From Planctomycetota bacterium (GTDB lineage: Bacteria; Planctomycetota; MHYJ01; WSZJ01), in the NCBI GenBank assembly GCA_038060895.1, contig JBBTCT010000009.1, positions 272,082 through 336,081 on the forward strand: a DNA stretch of 64,000 nt. The letters run 5' to 3'. Within the stretch, counting starts at the first letter, position 1. Every line of letters begins with the position of its first letter. Shown here in pieces: positions 17,988 to 26,583 of this stretch. A program made the translations under genes and the position numbers. The notes under the pieces were generated by a model. The model was not told the DNA's origin and ran no database searches. It worked only from the letters and a program-made list of their open reading frames with translations.

Positions 17988-18739
17988 TCCCTCTCCTCGA
18001 AGCACGCGGATTTGGCGTCTCCCTCGGAGGTGCCTCCGTACTCCGGAATGTCGATCTCGCCATGAATCCCAACGAGATCCTCTCGATCATCGGGCCGGCG
18101 GGAAGCGGCAAGACGACCTTCCTGCGTTGCATCAACCGGCTGAGCGACCTGGTGCCAGAAACCCGCGTCGTGGGAAATCTGTCCTTCGAGGGACGGGACG
18201 TTTTCGCACCAGGGACAGACGTCGCCGCCCTGCGCCGCCGCGCCGGAATGGTGTTCGCAGTTCCGAACCCGCTTCCCAGGTCCATTTACGAGAACATCGC
18301 CTTCGGCCCGAGACTGACGGGATTGCGGTCCCGCGACGTCCTCGATGAAATCGTCGAGCGCACCCTGCGCGCGTCGGTGCTGTGGGACGAAGTCAAAGAC
18401 CGGCTGCATACCTCTGGGACGAAACTCTCGGGCGGCCAGCAGCAGCGCCTCTGCCTGGCGCGGACGCTGGCCCTGGGACCGCAGGTGCTTCTCCTCGACG
18501 AGCCGTGCTCGGGACTCGATCCGATATCGACTGCGAAAATCGAGGAAGCGCTTCAGGACCTGAAAAAAACGCTGACCGTCGTGCTCGTGACGAACAACGT
18601 GAAGCAGGCGGCGCGATCGAGCGACCGCACCGCGTTCTTCCTGATGGGAGAAATGGTCGAGATCGGCGTGACGGGGGAGCTGTTTACCCACCCGCGGGAC
18701 AAGCGGACGAACGACTACATCTCGGGGAGGTTCGGGTAA
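17984..18739 (+). CDS. pstB: Phosphate ABC transporter ATPase, copy 1 (degenerate A-, Q- and H-loops)
   Basis: GPAGSGKTT, VFAVPNP, LSGGQQQR, LLLDEP, VTNN, YISGRFG. Confidence 0.88.
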   Translation: MIPLLEARGFGVSLGGASVLRNVDLAMNPNEILSIIGPAGSGKTTFLRCINRLSDLVPETRVVGNLSFEGRDVFAPGTDVAALRRRAGMVFAVPNPLPRSIYENIAFGPRLTGLRSRDVLDEIVERTLRASVLWDEVKDRLHTSGTKLSGGQQQRLCLARTLALGPQVLLLDEPCSGLDPISTAKIEEALQDLKKTLTVVLVTNNVKQAARSSDRTAFFLMGEMVEIGVTGELFTHPRDKRTNDYISGRFG

Positions 18740-19485
18740 TGCTGGAGGCCCGTAACCTGAAGCTCTGGTACGGCGACTTCATGGCGCTCAATGGCGTCTC
18801 CATGTCCATCATTCCCAACGCCATCACGGCCATCATCGGTCCGTCCGGCTGCGGCAAGTCGACGCTGCTGCGCTGTTTCAACCGCATGAACGACCTGGTG
18901 GAGGGCTCGCGGACCGAGGGCGAAATCCTCTTCGAGGGCAAGAACATCTATGAGCGCCGCTTCGACATGACGGAGCTTCGGAAGCGCGTCGGAATGGTGT
19001 TCCAGCGCCCGAACCCGTTTCCGCTCACCGTTTTCGACAACGTCGCCTACGGCCCGCGCATCCACGGCCTTGCCACCGGCGACGCGCTCCGGGAAACCGT
19101 CAAGAAGGCGCTCCAGTCGACGCTTCTCTGGGACGAACTCGGCGACAAGCTCGAAGCCCCGGCGCTGTCGCTTTCCGCGGAGCAGCAGCAGCGGCTCTGC
19201 ATCTCCCGGCTGGTCGCTGTCGAGCCCGATGTCCTCCTGATGGACGAGCCGTGTTCGGCGCTGGATCCGATGGCGACGCAGAACATCGAGGAACTGATGC
19301 TAGAATTGAAGAAGCGATTCACGATCGTGATCGTCACCCACAATATGCAACAGGCCGCCCGCGTCAGTGACTTCACCGGGTTCATGCTCCTGGGGGACCT
19401 TGTCGAGTTCGGCGAGACGCAGCAGGTGTTTACGGCGCCTCGCCAGCGGAAGACGGAGGAGTACATCACCGGGAGGTACGGCTAG
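18739..19485 (+). CDS. pstB: Phosphate ABC transporter ATPase, copy 2 (degenerate signature motif)
   Basis: ATG overlaps the previous TAA; GPSGCGKST, VFQRPNP, LSAEQQQR, LLMDEP, VTHN, YITGRYG. Confidence 0.9.
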   Translation: MLEARNLKLWYGDFMALNGVSMSIIPNAITAIIGPSGCGKSTLLRCFNRMNDLVEGSRTEGEILFEGKNIYERRFDMTELRKRVGMVFQRPNPFPLTVFDNVAYGPRIHGLATGDALRETVKKALQSTLLWDELGDKLEAPALSLSAEQQQRLCISRLVAVEPDVLLMDEPCSALDPMATQNIEELMLELKKRFTIVIVTHNMQQAARVSDFTGFMLLGDLVEFGETQQVFTAPRQRKTEEYITGRYG

Positions 19486-19487
19486 AG

Positions 19488-20165
19488 ATGAAGCGGCACT
19501 TCGACGAAGAGCTGGCGCAGGTCAAGGAGCGGCTTCTCCGCATGGGGGCCAATGCTGAGAAGATGATCCATCTTTCCGCGAAGGACCTGCTGGCGCGGAC
19601 GGAATCGGACCGGGCGGAGCTGGAGCGGCTCGAGAAGGACGTCAACAGCCTGGAGATGGAAATCGACGACCGGGTCGTCAAGCTGATCGCGCTCCGTCAG
19701 CCGATGGCCACGGACCTGCGCTTCCTGATGATGGCCAGCCGCATCGCGGGCGAGCTGGAGCGGATTGCGGACCAGTCGATCAACATCATCGAGACGACGC
19801 ACTGGTACCTGTCCGGTCCACCGTTGAAGCCGATCATGGATCTGCCGCTGATGGCGGAGATCGTGCAGGAGATGCTGCGGGACTGCCTGGACGCATTTGT
19901 GAGGCAGGACGTGGGGGCGGCGAAGCGGGTGCTGGAGAGCGACGACAAGGTGGACACGTGCAAGAAGCGGATCTTCGACGAGATGATCGCGACGATGGAG
20001 GGCGATCCTCAGACGGTCAGGCGCGGGGTGTGCATCGTGCTGATTTCGCGGAACCTGGAACGGATCGGGGACCACGCGACGAATATTGCGGAAGAAGTCA
20101 TCTACATGGTGGAGGCGCGGGACGTGCGCCACCACCACGGGGAAGAATCGAAGCCAGGGGAATGA
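19488..20165 (+). CDS. phoU: Phosphate signalling protein PhoU
   Basis: QPMATDLR, ELERIAD, NLERIGDHATNIAE. Confidence 0.95.
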   Translation: MKRHFDEELAQVKERLLRMGANAEKMIHLSAKDLLARTESDRAELERLEKDVNSLEMEIDDRVVKLIALRQPMATDLRFLMMASRIAGELERIADQSINIIETTHWYLSGPPLKPIMDLPLMAEIVQEMLRDCLDAFVRQDVGAAKRVLESDDKVDTCKKRIFDEMIATMEGDPQTVRRGVCIVLISRNLERIGDHATNIAEEVIYMVEARDVRHHHGEESKPGE

Positions 20166-20877: not shown

Positions 20878-22590
20878 ATGCTCACCGACCCCGCGTTCCG
20901 GCGCACCTTTCTTACGGCCGCGCTGCTCTCAGGGGTCGGTATGGCGGCGATAGCGGGAACCCTCTGCTGGCAGCAGGAAACGGCACACGAAATCCTCGTG
21001 CGGTCGAAGATGGCGCACGAGGCCGTGCTCGTTTCCGTGCATTGCTCTACTCGTTTCTTGCCGGCTCAGCCGCGCTTGCTCGAGGCCGAACTCGGCCCCC
21101 TCGCCCGCTCGCTGGGCGCCCGCATCGACGTCTACGACCCGTCGAACGGCAGCGTTCTGGCCTCGGGAGACGCGGGAAGCGGCGTCACGGCGTTCAAGTC
21201 TTCGCCGGCCGGCGGAGATTTTCGCGGCCCGGACGGCGCGGGGCGGGAAGTGGTCTCGGCGACGTTCGGCCCGGTCCCGTTGAACCGGGGCCGGGGGATT
21301 GAAGTGCGGGTCACGCGCCTCGCGGAGGTGGTCGACGCGCCGCTTCGAGAGTCTCAACGCCGGATCGCAGGCGCAGCCGCGGCAGCCTGGATCGCATCTC
21401 TCGCCATTTTCTTCATGGCGTTCTCTTCCATCCACGCGCGCGCAGCTTCGCTCCGGCTCGCGCTCAACGAACCCAAGGCAATCCTCCCGCCAGACCTCGG
21501 CGGCGTCCTCGGCGACATCGCCCGACGGACCGCGGGGCTTCTAGAGGAGTCCCGCGACGTCCAGAAGGACCGAAGCGCGATCCGGACCGAGGCAGACGCG
21601 ATCCTGGGCGGCATGACGGAAGGCGTCATTGCCGTCGACCGCGAGGGGCGCCTGAGGATCGTGAACGCGGCCGCGGCAGAGATCCTGGGGCTGGGCGGGG
21701 GCACGACGCTGGGCCAGCCGATCGGCGGCGTGGTGCGCTTCGAGGGGATCGCCGAAGCCGCCGCCAGGGCCGCGGGCGGGGCAGAACGGACCATCCGGGT
21801 CGACATTCCGGGGCCGCCACCGCGCGTGCTCGAGGTCCATGCGGAGCCGATTCCACAGGCCGGCGGAGCGGTGCTGGTGCTTCGCGATGTTTCGGAGGAA
21901 GCGAAGTACGCGGACATGCGCCGCGATTTCGTCGCGGCGGCATCGCACGAACTTCGGACTCCGATCGCCGTCATCCGGGCCGCCGCGGAAACCCTTCAGG
22001 ACGGCGCGTTGGAGCAGCCGGCACAGGCGAAGCAATTCCTCGACTCGATTCACCGGCACGCGCTGTCGATGGAAGCCCTGATCAAGGACCTGCTCGACCT
22101 GGGCAAGCTCGAGTCGCGCCCGGACCTGACGCTGCGCCCGACCGACGTCGCGCAGGTGCTGGACCGCGCGGTCGCGCTTCATGAGCCGGAGGCGAAGAAG
22201 CGCCGCCACGAAATCAAGGTTGCTGCGGCGGACACCCTTCCGCGCCTCATCGCCGATGCATCCCTCCTGGAGCGGGCCTTCTCGAACATTGTGGAAAACG
22301 CGGTCCGGTACACGCCGGACGAAGGGAAGATCTCTATCCGCGTGACGGCTGAGGGCGACAAGGTGCGGGTCGAGATTGAGGACACGGGGGCCGGAATCCC
22401 GGAGAAGGAACTCAAGAGGATCTTCGAGAGGTTCTATCGCGTCGACCGTTCGCGCTCACGGGAGCAGGGCGGCACCGGTCTCGGGCTCGCGATCGTGAAG
22501 CACGTTGTTCAGCTGCACAAAGGCGAGGTGTGGGCTGAGAGTGGGGCGGGGAAGGGAGCGAAATTCATCGTGGTACTGCCCGGGATCTAA
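20878..22590 (+). CDS. phoR: PAS-containing sensor histidine kinase (PhoR-like)
   Basis: Two TM segments, PAS (EGVIAVD), SHELRTP H-box, ENAVRY, FERFYRVD, GGTGLGL. Confidence 0.9.
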   Translation: MLTDPAFRRTFLTAALLSGVGMAAIAGTLCWQQETAHEILVRSKMAHEAVLVSVHCSTRFLPAQPRLLEAELGPLARSLGARIDVYDPSNGSVLASGDAGSGVTAFKSSPAGGDFRGPDGAGREVVSATFGPVPLNRGRGIEVRVTRLAEVVDAPLRESQRRIAGAAAAAWIASLAIFFMAFSSIHARAASLRLALNEPKAILPPDLGGVLGDIARRTAGLLEESRDVQKDRSAIRTEADAILGGMTEGVIAVDREGRLRIVNAAAAEILGLGGGTTLGQPIGGVVRFEGIAEAAARAAGGAERTIRVDIPGPPPRVLEVHAEPIPQAGGAVLVLRDVSEEAKYADMRRDFVAAASHELRTPIAVIRAAAETLQDGALEQPAQAKQFLDSIHRHALSMEALIKDLLDLGKLESRPDLTLRPTDVAQVLDRAVALHEPEAKKRRHEIKVAAADTLPRLIADASLLERAFSNIVENAVRYTPDEGKISIRVTAEGDKVRVEIEDTGAGIPEKELKRIFERFYRVDRSRSREQGGTGLGLAIVKHVVQLHKGEVWAESGAGKGAKFIVVLPGI

Positions 22591-22707: not shown

Positions 22708-23937
22708 CTACCAGCCGTAGTCCCCGATGCTCGCCGGGACCATCCGGTCCGTCGGCGTATCAGGCGCGAGCTGAATCGCGTAGCCCATCGGCGCGGGATC
22801 GAAGTCGTTGTTCCGGAAGTTGTAGCGTGTGCCGCCCCAGCGGGTGCCGGTGCTGGTGAGGTCGAGTGAAATGAAGCGGCGGCCCTGGAGGCTCCAGACG
22901 CCGCGGCCGAGGATGGTGCCGCGGTAACCGCGCTCCTGATCTTTTTCTCCGGTGTCGTCGGCGGCCCAGCGGCCCTTGTGGACCAGTTCAACCGGGCCTT
23001 CGTAGCGGACGGTGACCCTGTCTCCCTTGACGGACTCGATCGTGGCCTTGAGTGACGCCTGCTTCACGGCCTCATCGGGAAAAGCGTTCGTCTGGCCGCG
23101 GACGTTATCGACGAAGTGGCACCGCACGAGCCGCCGGACCAGCGCCTCCGGAACCTCGCGGTAAGCGCCTTTCGAAGTGGACTCCGGCATCCATGACGTC
23201 ATCTCGTCCTTGAGGAACCACGCGTAGTCGATGTTCCATGCGGGATCGCGCCAGTCGCCGAATTTCTTTTCGCGCGGGAGGTCGCGGGAGTACACGCGCA
23301 ACGCCATTCCGTCCCCAGGGTAGCGGTCCTCCCAGCGGCCCTTGATTTCCTCCGGTTTCTCCTTCAGGAGGCGCCGGTCCTTCGGCAGGTCTTCCCAGGC
23401 CTTCAGCGCTTCCTTGAGCATCCGTTCCACGGCGTCGGCACTCGTCGAGTTCACGCTTGCCAGGAACTCGCCGGACGGCGCCAGCGCGTAGATGCCTTGC
23501 CGCGTCGCGTCCATCGGGTTGCCGGCGTAGTGGCCTTTCTCGGAGACGAGACGGAAGTGTTTACCCGCGGGGCCCTGGTTGCGGTGAAGGGTGTGGACTT
23601 CGTCGGTCGCGGGGATGAACGATTTCATCAGTTCCTGGACATCGGGTTCCGCCCAGACGGACCGCCGGGCGCGGACGCCGTTGTTTCAGGTGCAGGCGAG
23701 CGGGTGCCCGTTCATCGTCCAGAGGAGAACGGGCCGGCCGGCCTTGTTTCCGTCGAGCACCGCGGTCCAATAAGAGGTGCGCCACGGGATGGCGCGCCAC
23801 TTCTCTTCGTCGGGCTTCGGGAGAATCGTCTCCCGCATTGCGGCGAGGTTCTTTTCCGTCAGGACGGGATCGGCTGGCTGCGCGGACGCCTGCAGGCCTG
23901 CGAGGAGGAGAAGAGCGGCGGCGTGAGGGCGCATCAT
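22708..23937 (-). CDS. Putative exported thioredoxin-like selenoprotein (409 aa, Sec84 in C-T-U)
   Basis: ORFs 23686..24081 and 22708..23628 share a frame and are joined by one TGA: ...WTMNGHPLACT-TGA-NNGVRARRSVWAEPDVQELMKSF...; signal peptide MMRPHAAALLLLAGLQASA; hairpin downstream. Confidence 0.78.
23651..23670 (-). promoter_or_regulatory. Candidate SECIS hairpin
   Basis: mRNA GCCCGGC-GGUCC-GUCUGGGC at +16..+35 after the UGA; G-led loop. Confidence 0.62.
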
Positions 23938-24079
23938 GTCCCGGCATCTTAACCGGGCACACTGAAGGACGTACCGCGGGATCAAACGTTTCAGGCATCC
24001 GGTGGTCGACGGGCCGTTACGCGGGTCGCGCGGTTCGGTTACGATGATTGCGGTCCGGGGGGACCGGAGAACCCACTTC

Positions 24080-25483
24080 ATGCGCCAGCTTGCCGCATTT
24101 TTCTGCCTGATGGCCGCCGCGGCCGCCGCGGAAACCCCGTACCGCGACCTCCGCCGGCCGCCGATTCAGCGCCCCTACAAGTCGCTCGTCATTGAATGGA
24201 TTTCGCAGGAGCCGAAGAACAGTGTTTCGAAGGACGGCGATTCCAGCGGACCTTCGGAAGGGCAGTCGCTTTCCTACACCGCGCACCTGCGGAATCTGGG
24301 TTCCGTGAACACGGAGCCGGTGATGGTGCGGTGGTTCGTGGATGGCCTTCAGAAGTCCACCGGGACGATCCCCGGGATCGGGGCGGGCCAGCGTTCGACC
24401 GCGACCTTTGCGTGGACGGCGGCCGAGGGCCGGCACTGGATCCAGTGCGAGCTGCTCGGGCACGAGGAGTGGCTGACGATCGCCAGCGACGGGCTGACGG
24501 TGAAGGTGCTCGTCGAAAAAAAAACATTGGAGAAGTACGAGGACGAATTCGGCTCGTTCGCGCGCCGCTTCCAGGATTCATTCTCGGGCCTCCACGCCTC
24601 GTGGTCGGCCGTCCGCGACGCCCGGTTCGCTCCTGAAGGGATCGACGAGCGCCTCCGGATCGACGACGTCGCCGTCTACGAACGCGGCGGCAAGGATGCC
24701 GAGGTCCCGAAGGAATTCTGGGATCACCCCGACTTCGACCTCGAGATCGCCTGCGACCAGGGAGGCCCGATCGCCGGCTTCTACATCCCGGGTTACTCGA
24801 TCGGCCACAACTACTCCGGGAACCCCGGCCACGAATCCCTCTTCTCAGACTGGGGCGAGAACTGCCTCTGGCACGAGATCGGACATTTCCGCGGCGTGCA
24901 GGACTTCTACATCTTCCCGACGAAAGAGGGCGACGTCGGCAAGCTCGACGCCGCCGGGAACCCCCTGGAACTCCTCACCCTGCGCCCGGAATTCGCCGAC
25001 GACACCATGAACTCGCCGTACAAGCCGACCCGCTGGAACGAGTACTCGACGGCGGTGATTCGCATGAAGCGCGGCATTTCGCGCGTCGGGCGATGCGAGG
25101 ATCCGGCCAACACCTTCGGGCACATGTGGCGCCACGTCCCGGCGGCGGTGGAAATCCAGGTCATCGGGGAGGAAGGCAGGCCGGTGAAGTACGCCGAAGT
25201 CGAGGTTTACCGGCCGGTGCTCGGAGAAGATGGACGTGCCCGGGTCGCGAAAGACGCGAAGCCCCTGTACGAGGGAGCGGTCGATGACCAGGGACACTTC
25301 ATACTCGGCGACGATCCTTTCGGGAAGCGCAAGGCCGAGGCAAATCGCGCGCCCTGGGTGCTGATCCTGATCCGGAGAGAAGGAGTGATTCGCGGGCGGT
25401 ACCTGACCCTCATGGACATGAACCTGGCGTACTGGAAAGACCAGAAAGAGAAGGCCATTTTCCAGGTCGTCTGGAACAAGTGA
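24080..25483 (+). CDS. Exported protein with CARDB/Ig-like domain and HExxH metalloprotease motif
   Basis: Signal peptide MRQLAAFFCLMAAAAAA; TAHLRNLGS...VRWFVDG Ig-like segment; LWHEIGHF. Confidence 0.65.
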   Translation: MRQLAAFFCLMAAAAAAETPYRDLRRPPIQRPYKSLVIEWISQEPKNSVSKDGDSSGPSEGQSLSYTAHLRNLGSVNTEPVMVRWFVDGLQKSTGTIPGIGAGQRSTATFAWTAAEGRHWIQCELLGHEEWLTIASDGLTVKVLVEKKTLEKYEDEFGSFARRFQDSFSGLHASWSAVRDARFAPEGIDERLRIDDVAVYERGGKDAEVPKEFWDHPDFDLEIACDQGGPIAGFYIPGYSIGHNYSGNPGHESLFSDWGENCLWHEIGHFRGVQDFYIFPTKEGDVGKLDAAGNPLELLTLRPEFADDTMNSPYKPTRWNEYSTAVIRMKRGISRVGRCEDPANTFGHMWRHVPAAVEIQVIGEEGRPVKYAEVEVYRPVLGEDGRARVAKDAKPLYEGAVDDQGHFILGDDPFGKRKAEANRAPWVLILIRREGVIRGRYLTLMDMNLAYWKDQKEKAIFQVVWNK

Positions 25484-26583
25484 CAATCTGTCGAGAGAGC
25501 CGAATGAATCGCGGGAAGCGGGGTGGGGGAGTGGGACAGTTGACGGCGAAACGGGCGGACCAGAAGACGCTTAAGGTCTTCGCGCCCGGCCGCGTCAACC
25601 TGATCGGCGAGCACGTCGATTACTCGGGCGGCCCGGTCCTCCCGTTTCCTCTTCCCGGGCTCGGGACGACCATCTCGGGAAGGCGTTCGCCTGAGCTGCG
25701 GGCGACCAGCGACGCGTGCAGCGGCGCGGTGCGGCTTCACGCAGCGCAGCGCGGGCGCGGCTGGGGGTTGTACCTTTCCGCCGCATGGGACGCGCTTCGC
25801 GTCAAGTGCCCCGGAGTGGGAGGCTGGACGGGCGCGGTCTCCAGCAACCTGCCGATCGGCGCCGGACTCTCCTCGTCGGCGTCTCTCCTGGTCGCCGCGC
25901 TCCAGCTCTGGAACCGGTTGTACTCGCTTCGACTGGGCCCTCCCGACATCGCACACCTCGCCTGGCTCGCAGAAACGCGCGGCGTCGGGAAGCCCGTCGG
26001 GCCCATGGACCCCTACGCCATCGCCCTCGGCCGCGCCGGCTCCGCCCTGCTCTTCGATTGCGCTTCCCTGAACGGCCGCCACGTGCCGCTCCCGCCCGCC
26101 TACGCGGTGGTCTTTCATTCGGGGATTTCCCGGGCGCTTGCGGGGAGCCAGTACGGGAAGCGGCGGGCGCAGTGCGAGGCCGCGGCGAAGTCGCTCGGCG
26201 TGCGCCGGCTCGCGCAGGCCCGGGAAGAGGACTTGTGGCGGCTGAAGGGCGCGGAGCATAAACGCGCGAAACATGTGGTCGGCGAGTGCAGCCGCGTGCA
26301 CTCCGCGGCGCGATTGATGAAACGGGGCGAAACACGGTTTCTCGGGAATCTCCTGATCACGTCCCACGAGTCGCTTCGCACGGACCACGAGGTTTCTCTT
26401 CCCGCCGTCGATCGCCAGGTTCTGGAAGCGCGCGCCGCGGGTGCTCTGGGCGCGCGCATGGTCGGAGGCGGTTTCGGCGGAGCGATCCTCGCGATTTTCG
26501 AAAAGGGGGATCCACGCGGTCCACGCTTCGCCCGCTGCCAGCGCCGGGTCCTCTGGTCTGGGGACTGGCGCGCAAAGACCTAA
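25480..26583 (+). CDS. galK: Galactokinase-like GHMP kinase (start uncertain)
   Basis: APGRVNLIGEHVDY, PIGAGLSSSAS, SHESLRTDHEVS, GARMVGGGFGG. Confidence 0.8.
   Translation: MTICRESRMNRGKRGGGVGQLTAKRADQKTLKVFAPGRVNLIGEHVDYSGGPVLPFPLPGLGTTISGRRSPELRATSDACSGAVRLHAAQRGRGWGLYLSAAWDALRVKCPGVGGWTGAVSSNLPIGAGLSSSASLLVAALQLWNRLYSLRLGPPDIAHLAWLAETRGVGKPVGPMDPYAIALGRAGSALLFDCASLNGRHVPLPPAYAVVFHSGISRALAGSQYGKRRAQCEAAAKSLGVRRLAQAREEDLWRLKGAEHKRAKHVVGECSRVHSAARLMKRGETRFLGNLLITSHESLRTDHEVSLPAVDRQVLEARAAGALGARMVGGGFGGAILAIFEKGDPRGPRFARCQRRVLWSGDWRAKT

Follow-up and report, generated by a model that had tools for sequence, protein, structure and literature searches.

A conserved in-frame TGA points to an exported thioredoxin-fold selenoprotein in Planctomycetota

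Two minus-strand open reading frames (ORFs), called as separate hypothetical proteins in a 64,000-nucleotide stretch of DNA from a Planctomycetota bacterium (assembly GCA_038060895.1, contig JBBTCT010000009.1; the whole stretch is referred to below as the window), very probably form one gene for an exported selenoprotein. The gene lies at positions 22708..23937 of the window: its one in-frame UGA would be decoded as selenocysteine (Sec, U), its N-terminus has the look of a signal peptide, and the domain that the codon interrupts is predicted to adopt a thioredoxin fold of the Thioredoxin_7/DsbD-gamma/AGR type.

Reading frame, relatives and selenocysteine machinery

On the minus strand, the frame that runs from the ATG at 23937 to the TAG at 22708-22710 is open except for a single TGA (23686-23688), which is its codon 84. 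The upstream ORF (23686..24081, minus strand) ends in ...LLWTMNGHPLACT, with MNGHPLACT as its C-terminal letters, and then meets this TGA; past it, the same frame continues as NNGVRARRSVWAEPDVQELMKSFIP... into the ORF at 22708..23628 and on to the TAG. Read through from ATG 23937, the coding sequence (409 codons plus the TAG) yields 409 residues with U at position 84, in the motif NGHPLAC-T-U-NNGV. The original prediction had joined the two hypothetical ORFs into one protein of just this length, and the single frame, the TGA shared by relatives and a downstream part that is always in phase bear it out. It had also doubted that the downstream ORF has a start of its own: the ATG in question is M105 ('MKSFIP'), at a place in a conserved block that relatives fill with L, A or V, so M105 is not a conserved start. 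Its signal peptide starting at ATG 23937 likewise finds support, as residues 1-19 (23881..23937, minus strand; MMRPHAAALLLLAGLQASA, followed by QP) resemble, by eye, a cleavable signal peptide of the general secretory type, and hydrophobic leaders of similar kind start the proteins of relatives. In the AlphaFold2 model described below, the confidence score (predicted local distance difference test, pLDDT) is low at these residues; their removal would leave a mature protein of about 390 residues.

Of 401 genomes sampled from the phylum, 126 contain relatives of the gene, often several paralogues each. Among the 150 matches listed (there are 38 further ones beyond them), 138 carry exactly one TGA, three carry two and nine carry none, which makes 141 TGA-bearing matches; an in-frame TAA or TAG was found in none of the 150. 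The coding sequence is conserved on both sides of the in-frame UGA in two sets of loci. In the first, comprising 54 loci from the sampled genomes and including paralogues down to 24-38% identity to the query, the TGA falls at the motif column of G-[HND]-P-x(2-5)-U-x(1-3)-G. The second comes from scanning a single genome of each species with the seed W[AT]MNGHPL, and in 80 of 80 loci the TGA directly follows [AG]C[TV]. Across 55 aligned sequences, G77, P79 and G87 are invariant, U84 is nearly invariant and H78 is near-constant. Three of the listed matches have two TGA codons (G116:C359:1634-2806, G226:C31:308933-310120 and G359:C4:346220-347356). In loci L078 and L079 the second TGA is probably a real stop, as it gives proteins of 388 and 392 residues; at the G116 locus, L077, the frame runs for about 154 codons beyond U84 before a further stop, TGA or other, is met.

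Sequence databases hold the family mainly as its downstream part. A word-indexed search gave 173 matches, and 119 of the best 120 cover at most 79% of the query; those that were read begin [MV][IR]ARRSVW, four codons after U. The lone match among these 120 that spans the site, P0022 (...GHPLGSTCGNGV), has Cys at the U position. An exhaustive search of representatives clustered at 50% identity returned 1713 proteins with an expect value (E) <= 0.001, 259 of them at E <= 1e-30; among the best 150 representatives, 139 begin no earlier than query residue 88, and the other 11 extend across residue 84. The original prediction had proposed a search for homologues with Cys at the TGA, and such homologues exist: in ten aligned full-length database homologues that lack the TGA, the U column holds Cys in five (as S-T-C in P0022 and P0127, Q-A-C in P0171, C-T-C in P0189 and C-N-C in P0240) and A, R, S, D and D in the other five. 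Among the TGA-less matches from genomes, L070 reads Q-A-C and L071 C-N-C, again with Cys at this column; the loop is QGNPLGLPD.APS, devoid of Cys, in L072, L073 and a second copy in L074; L075 shows Asp instead, and Cys is missing from L076. The named records are mostly Planctomycetota metagenome-assembled genomes (MAGs) from Planctomycetia, Brocadiia, Phycisphaerae, Pirellulaceae and Gemmataceae; eight records carry Armatimonadota lineage labels, and single records are labelled Verrucomicrobiota, Marinimicrobia and Glaciecola, possibly through mis-binning.

These data bear on one alternative, that the TGA is a true stop and the locus encodes an 83-residue exported peptide followed by a 306-325-residue cytoplasmic protein, or else is a decayed gene. 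Gene callers do split the locus in this way, and TGA is the real terminator of many family members. We nevertheless consider a true stop extremely improbable. The original prediction had looked to two signs of it, upstream homologues that end in TAA or TAG as often as in TGA, and a downstream frame that is variable or unlinked in relatives. Neither appeared: TAA and TAG never stand at that column among the matches listed, and every locus read has the two parts side by side in one phase, with the TGA at one column. The downstream part moreover has no conserved start, the Cys homologues are continuous, and the TGA falls between the first strand and the first helix of one predicted fold, so that neither half would fold alone.

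The host genome encodes all four components expected alongside a bacterial selenoprotein gene, each scoring over its curated cut-off: selA (541 bits), selB (310.7 bits), selD (364 bits, itself with one in-frame TGA) and tRNA-Sec (71.7 bits), which ARAGORN reports as tRNA-SeC with anticodon tca. At E <= 1e-60, selB was found in 285 of the 401 sampled genomes (282 over the curated cut-off), so Sec decoding is common in the phylum. The family tracks the Sec trait: selB is present in 120 of 126 family-bearing genomes versus 165 of the 275 that lack the family, in a comparison of related genomes that are not independent of one another. In two of the six family genomes without selB at this threshold (G142 and G303) the family is present only in its Cys-less, TGA-less form. 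The remaining four (G290, G023, G165 and G379, MAGs that are 85-93% complete) have TGA forms with no selB found, which speaks against Sec decoding. The figure of 80 of 80 overstates the Sec fraction, because the seed of that scan favours Sec-type members.

Could the UGA be read through otherwise, by near-cognate insertion of Trp or Cys or under a reassigned code, with no selenocysteine involved? Such read-through would equally keep the frame open. It is very improbable, however, given the complete Sec machinery of the host genome and a family that tracks selB. The true terminators of the family genes are a mix of TAA, TAG and TGA, so TGA is an ordinary stop in these organisms, and since it terminates many family genes in the same genomes the code is not reassigned. 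The homologous residue, furthermore, is Cys rather than Trp or Gly, and a hairpin is conserved at a set position after the codon. Decoding as selenocysteine remains the preferred reading of codon 84.

The host genome has a second copy of the gene (G000:C2:54476-55681, minus strand; locus L069:7474-8670), 48% identical to the first. It likewise has the TGA, in ...GHPLACTUNNGV, and lies about 5 kb from selD (C2:48628-49548).

A stem-loop after the TGA

Bacterial selenocysteine insertion sequence (SECIS) elements are stem-loops with G or U in the apical loop that lie shortly 3' of the UGA, within the distance range described in the bSECISearch literature. A stem-loop of this kind is present here at 23643..23680 (minus strand). 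Its core helix spans +16 to +34 after the codon, that is, columns 19-37 counted from the T of the TGA or window positions 23652-23670, and its apical loop is G-U-C (23660-23662); this matches the G-loop hairpin that the original prediction had placed at +16..+35. The hairpin, of the type CCAGAC-GGUCC-GUCUGG, lies within the codons for A-R-R/Q-x-V-W, and a weaker outer helix joins columns 9-15 to columns 40-46.

Support for the hairpin comes from conservation and covariation across relatives, not from the fold of a single sequence. In 40 sequences, 70.0% of the cells are paired, and sliding the 3' partner by one to three columns lowers this to 29-46%; one of 500 shuffles reaches that percentage, and three of 500 reach the covariation score. 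The clearest compensatory change is at pair 26-30, where 14 sequences pair G with C (CGG...UCC) and 12 pair A with U (CAG...UCU): the wobble base of a Ser codon varies synonymously together with its pairing partner, a pattern that selection at the protein level does not explain. In 12 divergent paralogues (...D-R-x-S-T-F), in which both arms are different, a hairpin shifted by half a step pairs in 65.5% of cells versus 15-48% when slid, and ten of the 12 retain the G-U-C loop.

Several results weaken the case for the hairpin. Changes on both sides occur in only five of the 14 pairs, a number that 182 of 500 shuffles reach; in the fixed register, pair 22-34 is unpaired in 26 of the 40 sequences and pair 20-36 in 23. 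The fold energy of the single sequence is ordinary relative to shuffles (z = -0.71) in what is a GC-rich sequence, and Rfam gave no match at the gathering threshold over the whole window. Because the hairpin overlaps the conserved peptide ARRxVW, most of its conservation could be at the protein level.

Predicted structure and likely chemistry

We modelled the read-through protein with AlphaFold2 from a 55-row alignment, with a mean pLDDT of 95.0 and a predicted template modelling score of 0.91. In the model, strand beta-1 (residues 70-75) precedes the TGA and helix alpha-1 (residues 85-93) follows directly after it; since the TGA lies between these two elements of one fold, a stop there would cut through a single domain. 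Residues 46-185 (23383..23802, minus strand) are predicted to form a thioredoxin fold of the Thioredoxin_7/DsbD-gamma/AGR-like kind. A VIA-align search of 48,161 chains gave, over residues 44-189, matches to an exported cytochrome c biogenesis-related protein (3f9u_B; Z 11.3, root-mean-square deviation 2.0, 108 residues aligned), a thioredoxin (2lst, Z 10.5), AGR3 (3ph9_B, Z 9.8), DsbH (2ju5, Z 8.8), a one-domain conserved protein (3ira_A, Z 8.6), a Thioredox_DsbH protein (7tkv, Z 7.9) and DsbD gamma (1vrs_D, Z 7.6). Foldseek places AGR2, 3f9u and ERp19 at the top with probability 1.00, the best E being only 3.6e-3. Both searches are thus led by structures of the Thioredoxin_7 type, the arrangement that the original prediction had read from the sequence and had proposed to compare with thioredoxins by structure prediction. 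The Thioredoxin_7 profile itself (PF13899) gives no match at E <= 1; nor does Pfam offer any family for the read-through protein at this level apart from a chance GIDA row (E 0.091), and NCBIfam offers none.

The placing of the TGA at the active-site position holds as well. When the family profile was aligned with PDB sequences (3f9u_A, E 0.38; 3ira_A, E 1.7), the U column fell in both cases on the first Cys of the CxxC motif (C-V-N-C and C-H-W-C, respectively) and Gly87 on the second, with a five-residue insertion, M-N-G-H-P, in the loop before the U column; the ...VW.DP.V..L...FVP...D block after the motif aligns too. We give these alignments weight because the same two entries are top structural matches. 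Their weak E-values permit the tentative statement that the motif is best written C-x-U-x-x-G, in which Sec would stand for the first Cys of CxxC and Gly87 for the second. The CxxC dithiol typical of the start of alpha-1 is absent, and in its place are U-N-N-G with an invariant Gly at the second position and an extra Cys at -2. Of the unusual CxU spacing in the original prediction, then, the C-x-U itself stands, being present in most loci; in the thioredoxin register it is probably Sec that takes the position of the leading CxxC cysteine, and Cys82 is an addition particular to this family, frequent rather than universal. The whole conserved motif, G77-H-P-L-A-C82-T-U84-N-N-G87, occupies 23677..23709 (minus strand).

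The original prediction had the thioredoxin-like segment fused to an uncharacterised region of about 300 residues. A separate domain does exist, of about 215 residues (195-409; 22711..23355, minus strand), and the remainder belongs to the thioredoxin fold, which extends to about residue 185. Folded alone, these C-terminal 215 residues give a pLDDT of 96.1 and long antiparallel strands, predicted as an up-and-down beta-sheet or barrel, and the domain has conserved blocks RDLPR, WNxDxAWF, HLVDNVRGQT and RWGGTQYN. Its best VIA-align matches, with Z up to 7.0, are NspA, PagL, OmpW-type eight-stranded barrels and porins, all within the stated background, and Foldseek gave no match to it at E <= 0.001. 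A homology with outer-membrane proteins was considered and rejected, such scores being what a generic up-and-down barrel attains by background; the weak matches do not show a new fold either. We describe the domain as predicted to be beta-barrel-like, with no clear solved relative.

The closest structural company of residues 46-185 (3f9u; DsbD gamma, 1vrs and 2fwe; DsbH, 2ju5; and 3ira/7tkv) shares with this protein, which is predicted to be exported, an extracytoplasmic location and a nucleophile at the start of alpha-1. The present family differs from it in having U-N-N-G with Sec for Cys, the M-N-G-H-P insertion, a Cys at -2 and a barrel of about 215 residues. The eukaryotic proteins AGR2/AGR3 and ERp18/19, related to protein disulfide isomerase, are the top Foldseek matches (9i3u_B, 3ph9_B and 1sen) and are secreted or luminal too; unlike this family they are Cys-based and without a barrel, and at 14-17% identity the resemblance is confined to the fold. 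Of the two motif cysteines AGR2 has just the first (CxxS), which would parallel U-x-x-G.

A likeness to the active-site region of SELENON had also been suggested, and it is not supported: C-T-U is the motif in most loci, and adjacent C-U was seen in one paralogue of the approximately 130 loci read. That sole locus (L060:319-1521; G144:C131) belongs to a distant paralogue and reads F-G-D-P-R-G-N-C-U-Q-N-G. What is shared is only a Sec near a Cys ahead of a helix in a protein of the secretory pathway. The SELENON motif is an adjacent C-U (S-C-U-G), in contrast to C-x-U here, with a Cys that is dispensable in some members. No search result links the family to SELENON, though no SELENON sequence or structure was compared.

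Thioredoxin-fold selenoproteins are the commonest kind of selenoprotein. A 2026 review tabulates 119 prokaryotic selenoprotein families with model accessions and motifs (PMC13188914, Table 1), among them the thioredoxin-like or CxU families Trx7/PDZ (NF041199, CxxU) and thioredoxin-like Sec.1 (PF13192, CxU), and also UshA-like (NF041198), rhodanese form 3 (NF041203) and ferredoxin-thioredoxin reductase (NF041072). These families resemble the present one in being bacterial with Sec in a redox-type motif, some of them in C-x-U and one with a Trx7-like domain. However, none of the 119 matches it by name, motif, architecture or domain identifier, and the combination of an H-P-x-x-C-T-U-N-N-G motif with this domain architecture does not occur there; the models NF041199, NF041198, NF041203, NF041072 and PF13192 do not match the protein at E <= 1. 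Our full-text literature search found no description of the family, though other papers may exist, and in PMC12013277 and PMC1794560 we found none. Table S9 of PMC4807772 includes a candidate Sec protein from a planctomycete, split and labelled 'hypothetical', for which Rhodopirellula sallentina has a Cys homologue; it may or may not belong to this family.

We propose the following sequence of events. The UGA at codon 84 would be decoded as selenocysteine by the cell's own SelA, SelB, SelD and tRNA-Sec, guided by the stem-loop 16-34 nucleotides downstream in the codons for A-R-R-S-V-W, and the signal peptide would then export the protein across the cytoplasmic membrane. In the predicted fold, and in the register suggested by the weak profile alignments, Sec84 would sit at the N-terminal end of alpha-1, in the place of the attacking Cys of CxxC, with Gly87 replacing the second Cys and with the M-N-G-H-P insertion and Cys82 preceding it. 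These steps are the ones that we hold with high confidence. For the chemistry and for the role of the barrel our confidence is about even: Sec84 may attack an oxidised sulfur, selenium or peroxide substrate in a single-selenol redox reaction; Cys82, where present, may resolve the adduct as a Cys82-Sec84 selenenylsulfide; an external reductant would regenerate the enzyme; and the barrel would pack against the thioredoxin domain and most likely bind a substrate or partner.

A number of observations weigh against this scheme or loosen it. The register alignments are weak (E = 0.38 and 1.7). Position -2 is C in 75 of the 80 loci scanned and H (one of 80), N, Q or S in the other five; P or A stands there in other paralogues, and H also in L039 and L041. 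Cys homologues, moreover, often have S or Q at that position. Since Cys82 varies and Cys forms often lack it, a Cys82-Sec84 redox pair cannot be essential, and because Cys82 is dispensable an obligatory C-x-U pair fits less well than a one-Sec mechanism that relies on an external reductant. Substrate, reductant and even the kind of chemistry have been read off the fold and the motif only.

A periplasmic one-Sec peroxidase akin to glutathione peroxidase (GPx) or peroxiredoxin would use much of the same evidence: a peroxide would oxidise Sec84 to a selenenic acid, recycled through Cys82 or an external thiol. The thioredoxin fold and a single nucleophile preceded by Thr (T-U) suit such an enzyme, as does Gln147, conserved just before beta-3 at what appears to be the place of the cis-Pro of thioredoxins; Sec, too, is usually kept where a nucleophile meets strong oxidants (see also PMC13188914). 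We think a peroxidase unlikely, given that the best structural neighbours are of the DsbD-gamma/AGR/DsbH type, with the GPx-type 3cmi only at Foldseek rank 41 (E 0.12), that no Pfam GPx, AhpC-TSA or Redoxin match appears at E <= 1, and that the large barrel domain is left unexplained.

The variation at position -2 can also be turned to the service of another account, in which His78, Cys82 and Sec84 are soft ligands of a metal or metalloid, the barrel is a carrier or partner-docking domain, and there is no thiol-disulfide chemistry. The H-P-x-x-C-x-U spacing is conserved, with G77 and P79 invariant and H78 near-constant; the exchange of Cys for His at -2 is typical of metal ligands; and Gly87 stands where the canonical resolving Cys would be. 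Position -2, however, is also occupied by residues that are not ligands (N, Q, S, A and P), the Cys-form homologues read S-T-C or Q-A-C, and no conserved metal-transport or chaperone genes lie nearby in the neighbourhoods of 30 and 20 loci. Sco-type proteins, which hold copper on a thioredoxin fold, would be a possible analogy. A metal site of this sort seems doubtful to us, and single-selenol redox chemistry at Sec84 is the reading carried forward.

Genomic context and meaning of the family

In the window, the convergent side of the gene holds plus-strand genes for a pstB-like ABC ATPase (18382-19485), PhoU (19488-20165) and a phoR-like PAS/HisKA/HATPase sensor kinase (20878-22590). The divergent neighbour (24002-25483, plus strand) encodes a protein of 493 residues that is hydrophobic at its N-terminus and has a CARDB domain (E 3.7e-6), and a gene for a galactokinase-like GHMP kinase (25480-26583) adjoins it. 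The second copy in the same genome is immediately followed, on its own strand, by Ppx/GppA and CHAD genes, and a phosphate-selective porin is near. Both copies therefore adjoin phosphate-related genes, and a link of the family as a whole to phosphate was considered; it was dropped, as none of 20 other loci has PhoU, Ppx, CHAD, PstA/C-like or porin O/P genes within 8 kb.

In seven of 20 loci, a gene for an extracytoplasmic function (ECF)-type sigma factor (Sigma70_r2/r4) and one for a Pfam-less protein of about 550-600 residues stand just upstream on the same strand (L161:5840-8001, with equivalents in L163, L165, L168, L169, L175 and L177). As six of these seven loci belong to a single taxonomic family, they amount to at most two independent cases, too few for the sigma factor and the approximately 550-residue protein to be accepted as a conserved context. 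With flanks of 1.5 kb in 30 loci and of 8 kb in 20 loci, only synteny at the level of lineages was seen and no conserved neighbour that would indicate a pathway, a further point against assigning the protein a particular redox role.

The module also occurs in larger proteins. In P0122 (1541 residues; G305:C321:10121-11305), which combines a Ser/Thr kinase domain with Kelch repeats, the C-terminus is a full copy of the module in which Asp replaces Sec, and about 4 kb from it the contig also carries a copy that contains the TGA (A-A-G-U-D-N); in another fusion a family copy is followed by a PQQ-like (pyrroloquinoline quinone) propeller. A redox-dead copy on a Ser/Thr kinase-Kelch protein suggests that the module may serve as a sensor domain too.

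A bolder reading, which we offer tentatively and regard as unlikely, is that the family constitutes a new class of Sec-dependent extracytoplasmic enzyme, in which a Thioredoxin_7 scaffold has been rebuilt around H-P-x-x-C-T-U-N-N-G and fused to a ligand-binding beta-barrel, with a chemistry so far assigned to no selenoprotein; an example would be the redox processing of a particular component of the envelope or of a sulfur, selenium or metalloid species. Such a class might even be a main reason why approximately 70% of the sampled genomes of the phylum keep the Sec machinery.

The family is a widespread and systematically mis-annotated one among selenoproteins, new in motif and architecture and almost always Sec-containing. 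In hundreds of deposited genomes its public annotation is a truncated 'hypothetical protein' that starts a few codons after the TGA, or two fragments, and a profile that spans the TGA would correct these annotations. As the family lies outside the 119-family table and yet occurs in 126 of the 401 sampled genomes of the phylum, the use of selenium in Planctomycetota and Armatimonadota has been underestimated. Its distinctive features, a single nucleophile in UxxG with an upstream Cys, an inserted loop, a fused barrel of no known family and export from the cytoplasm, make it a well-defined target in the search for a new extracytoplasmic redox activity.

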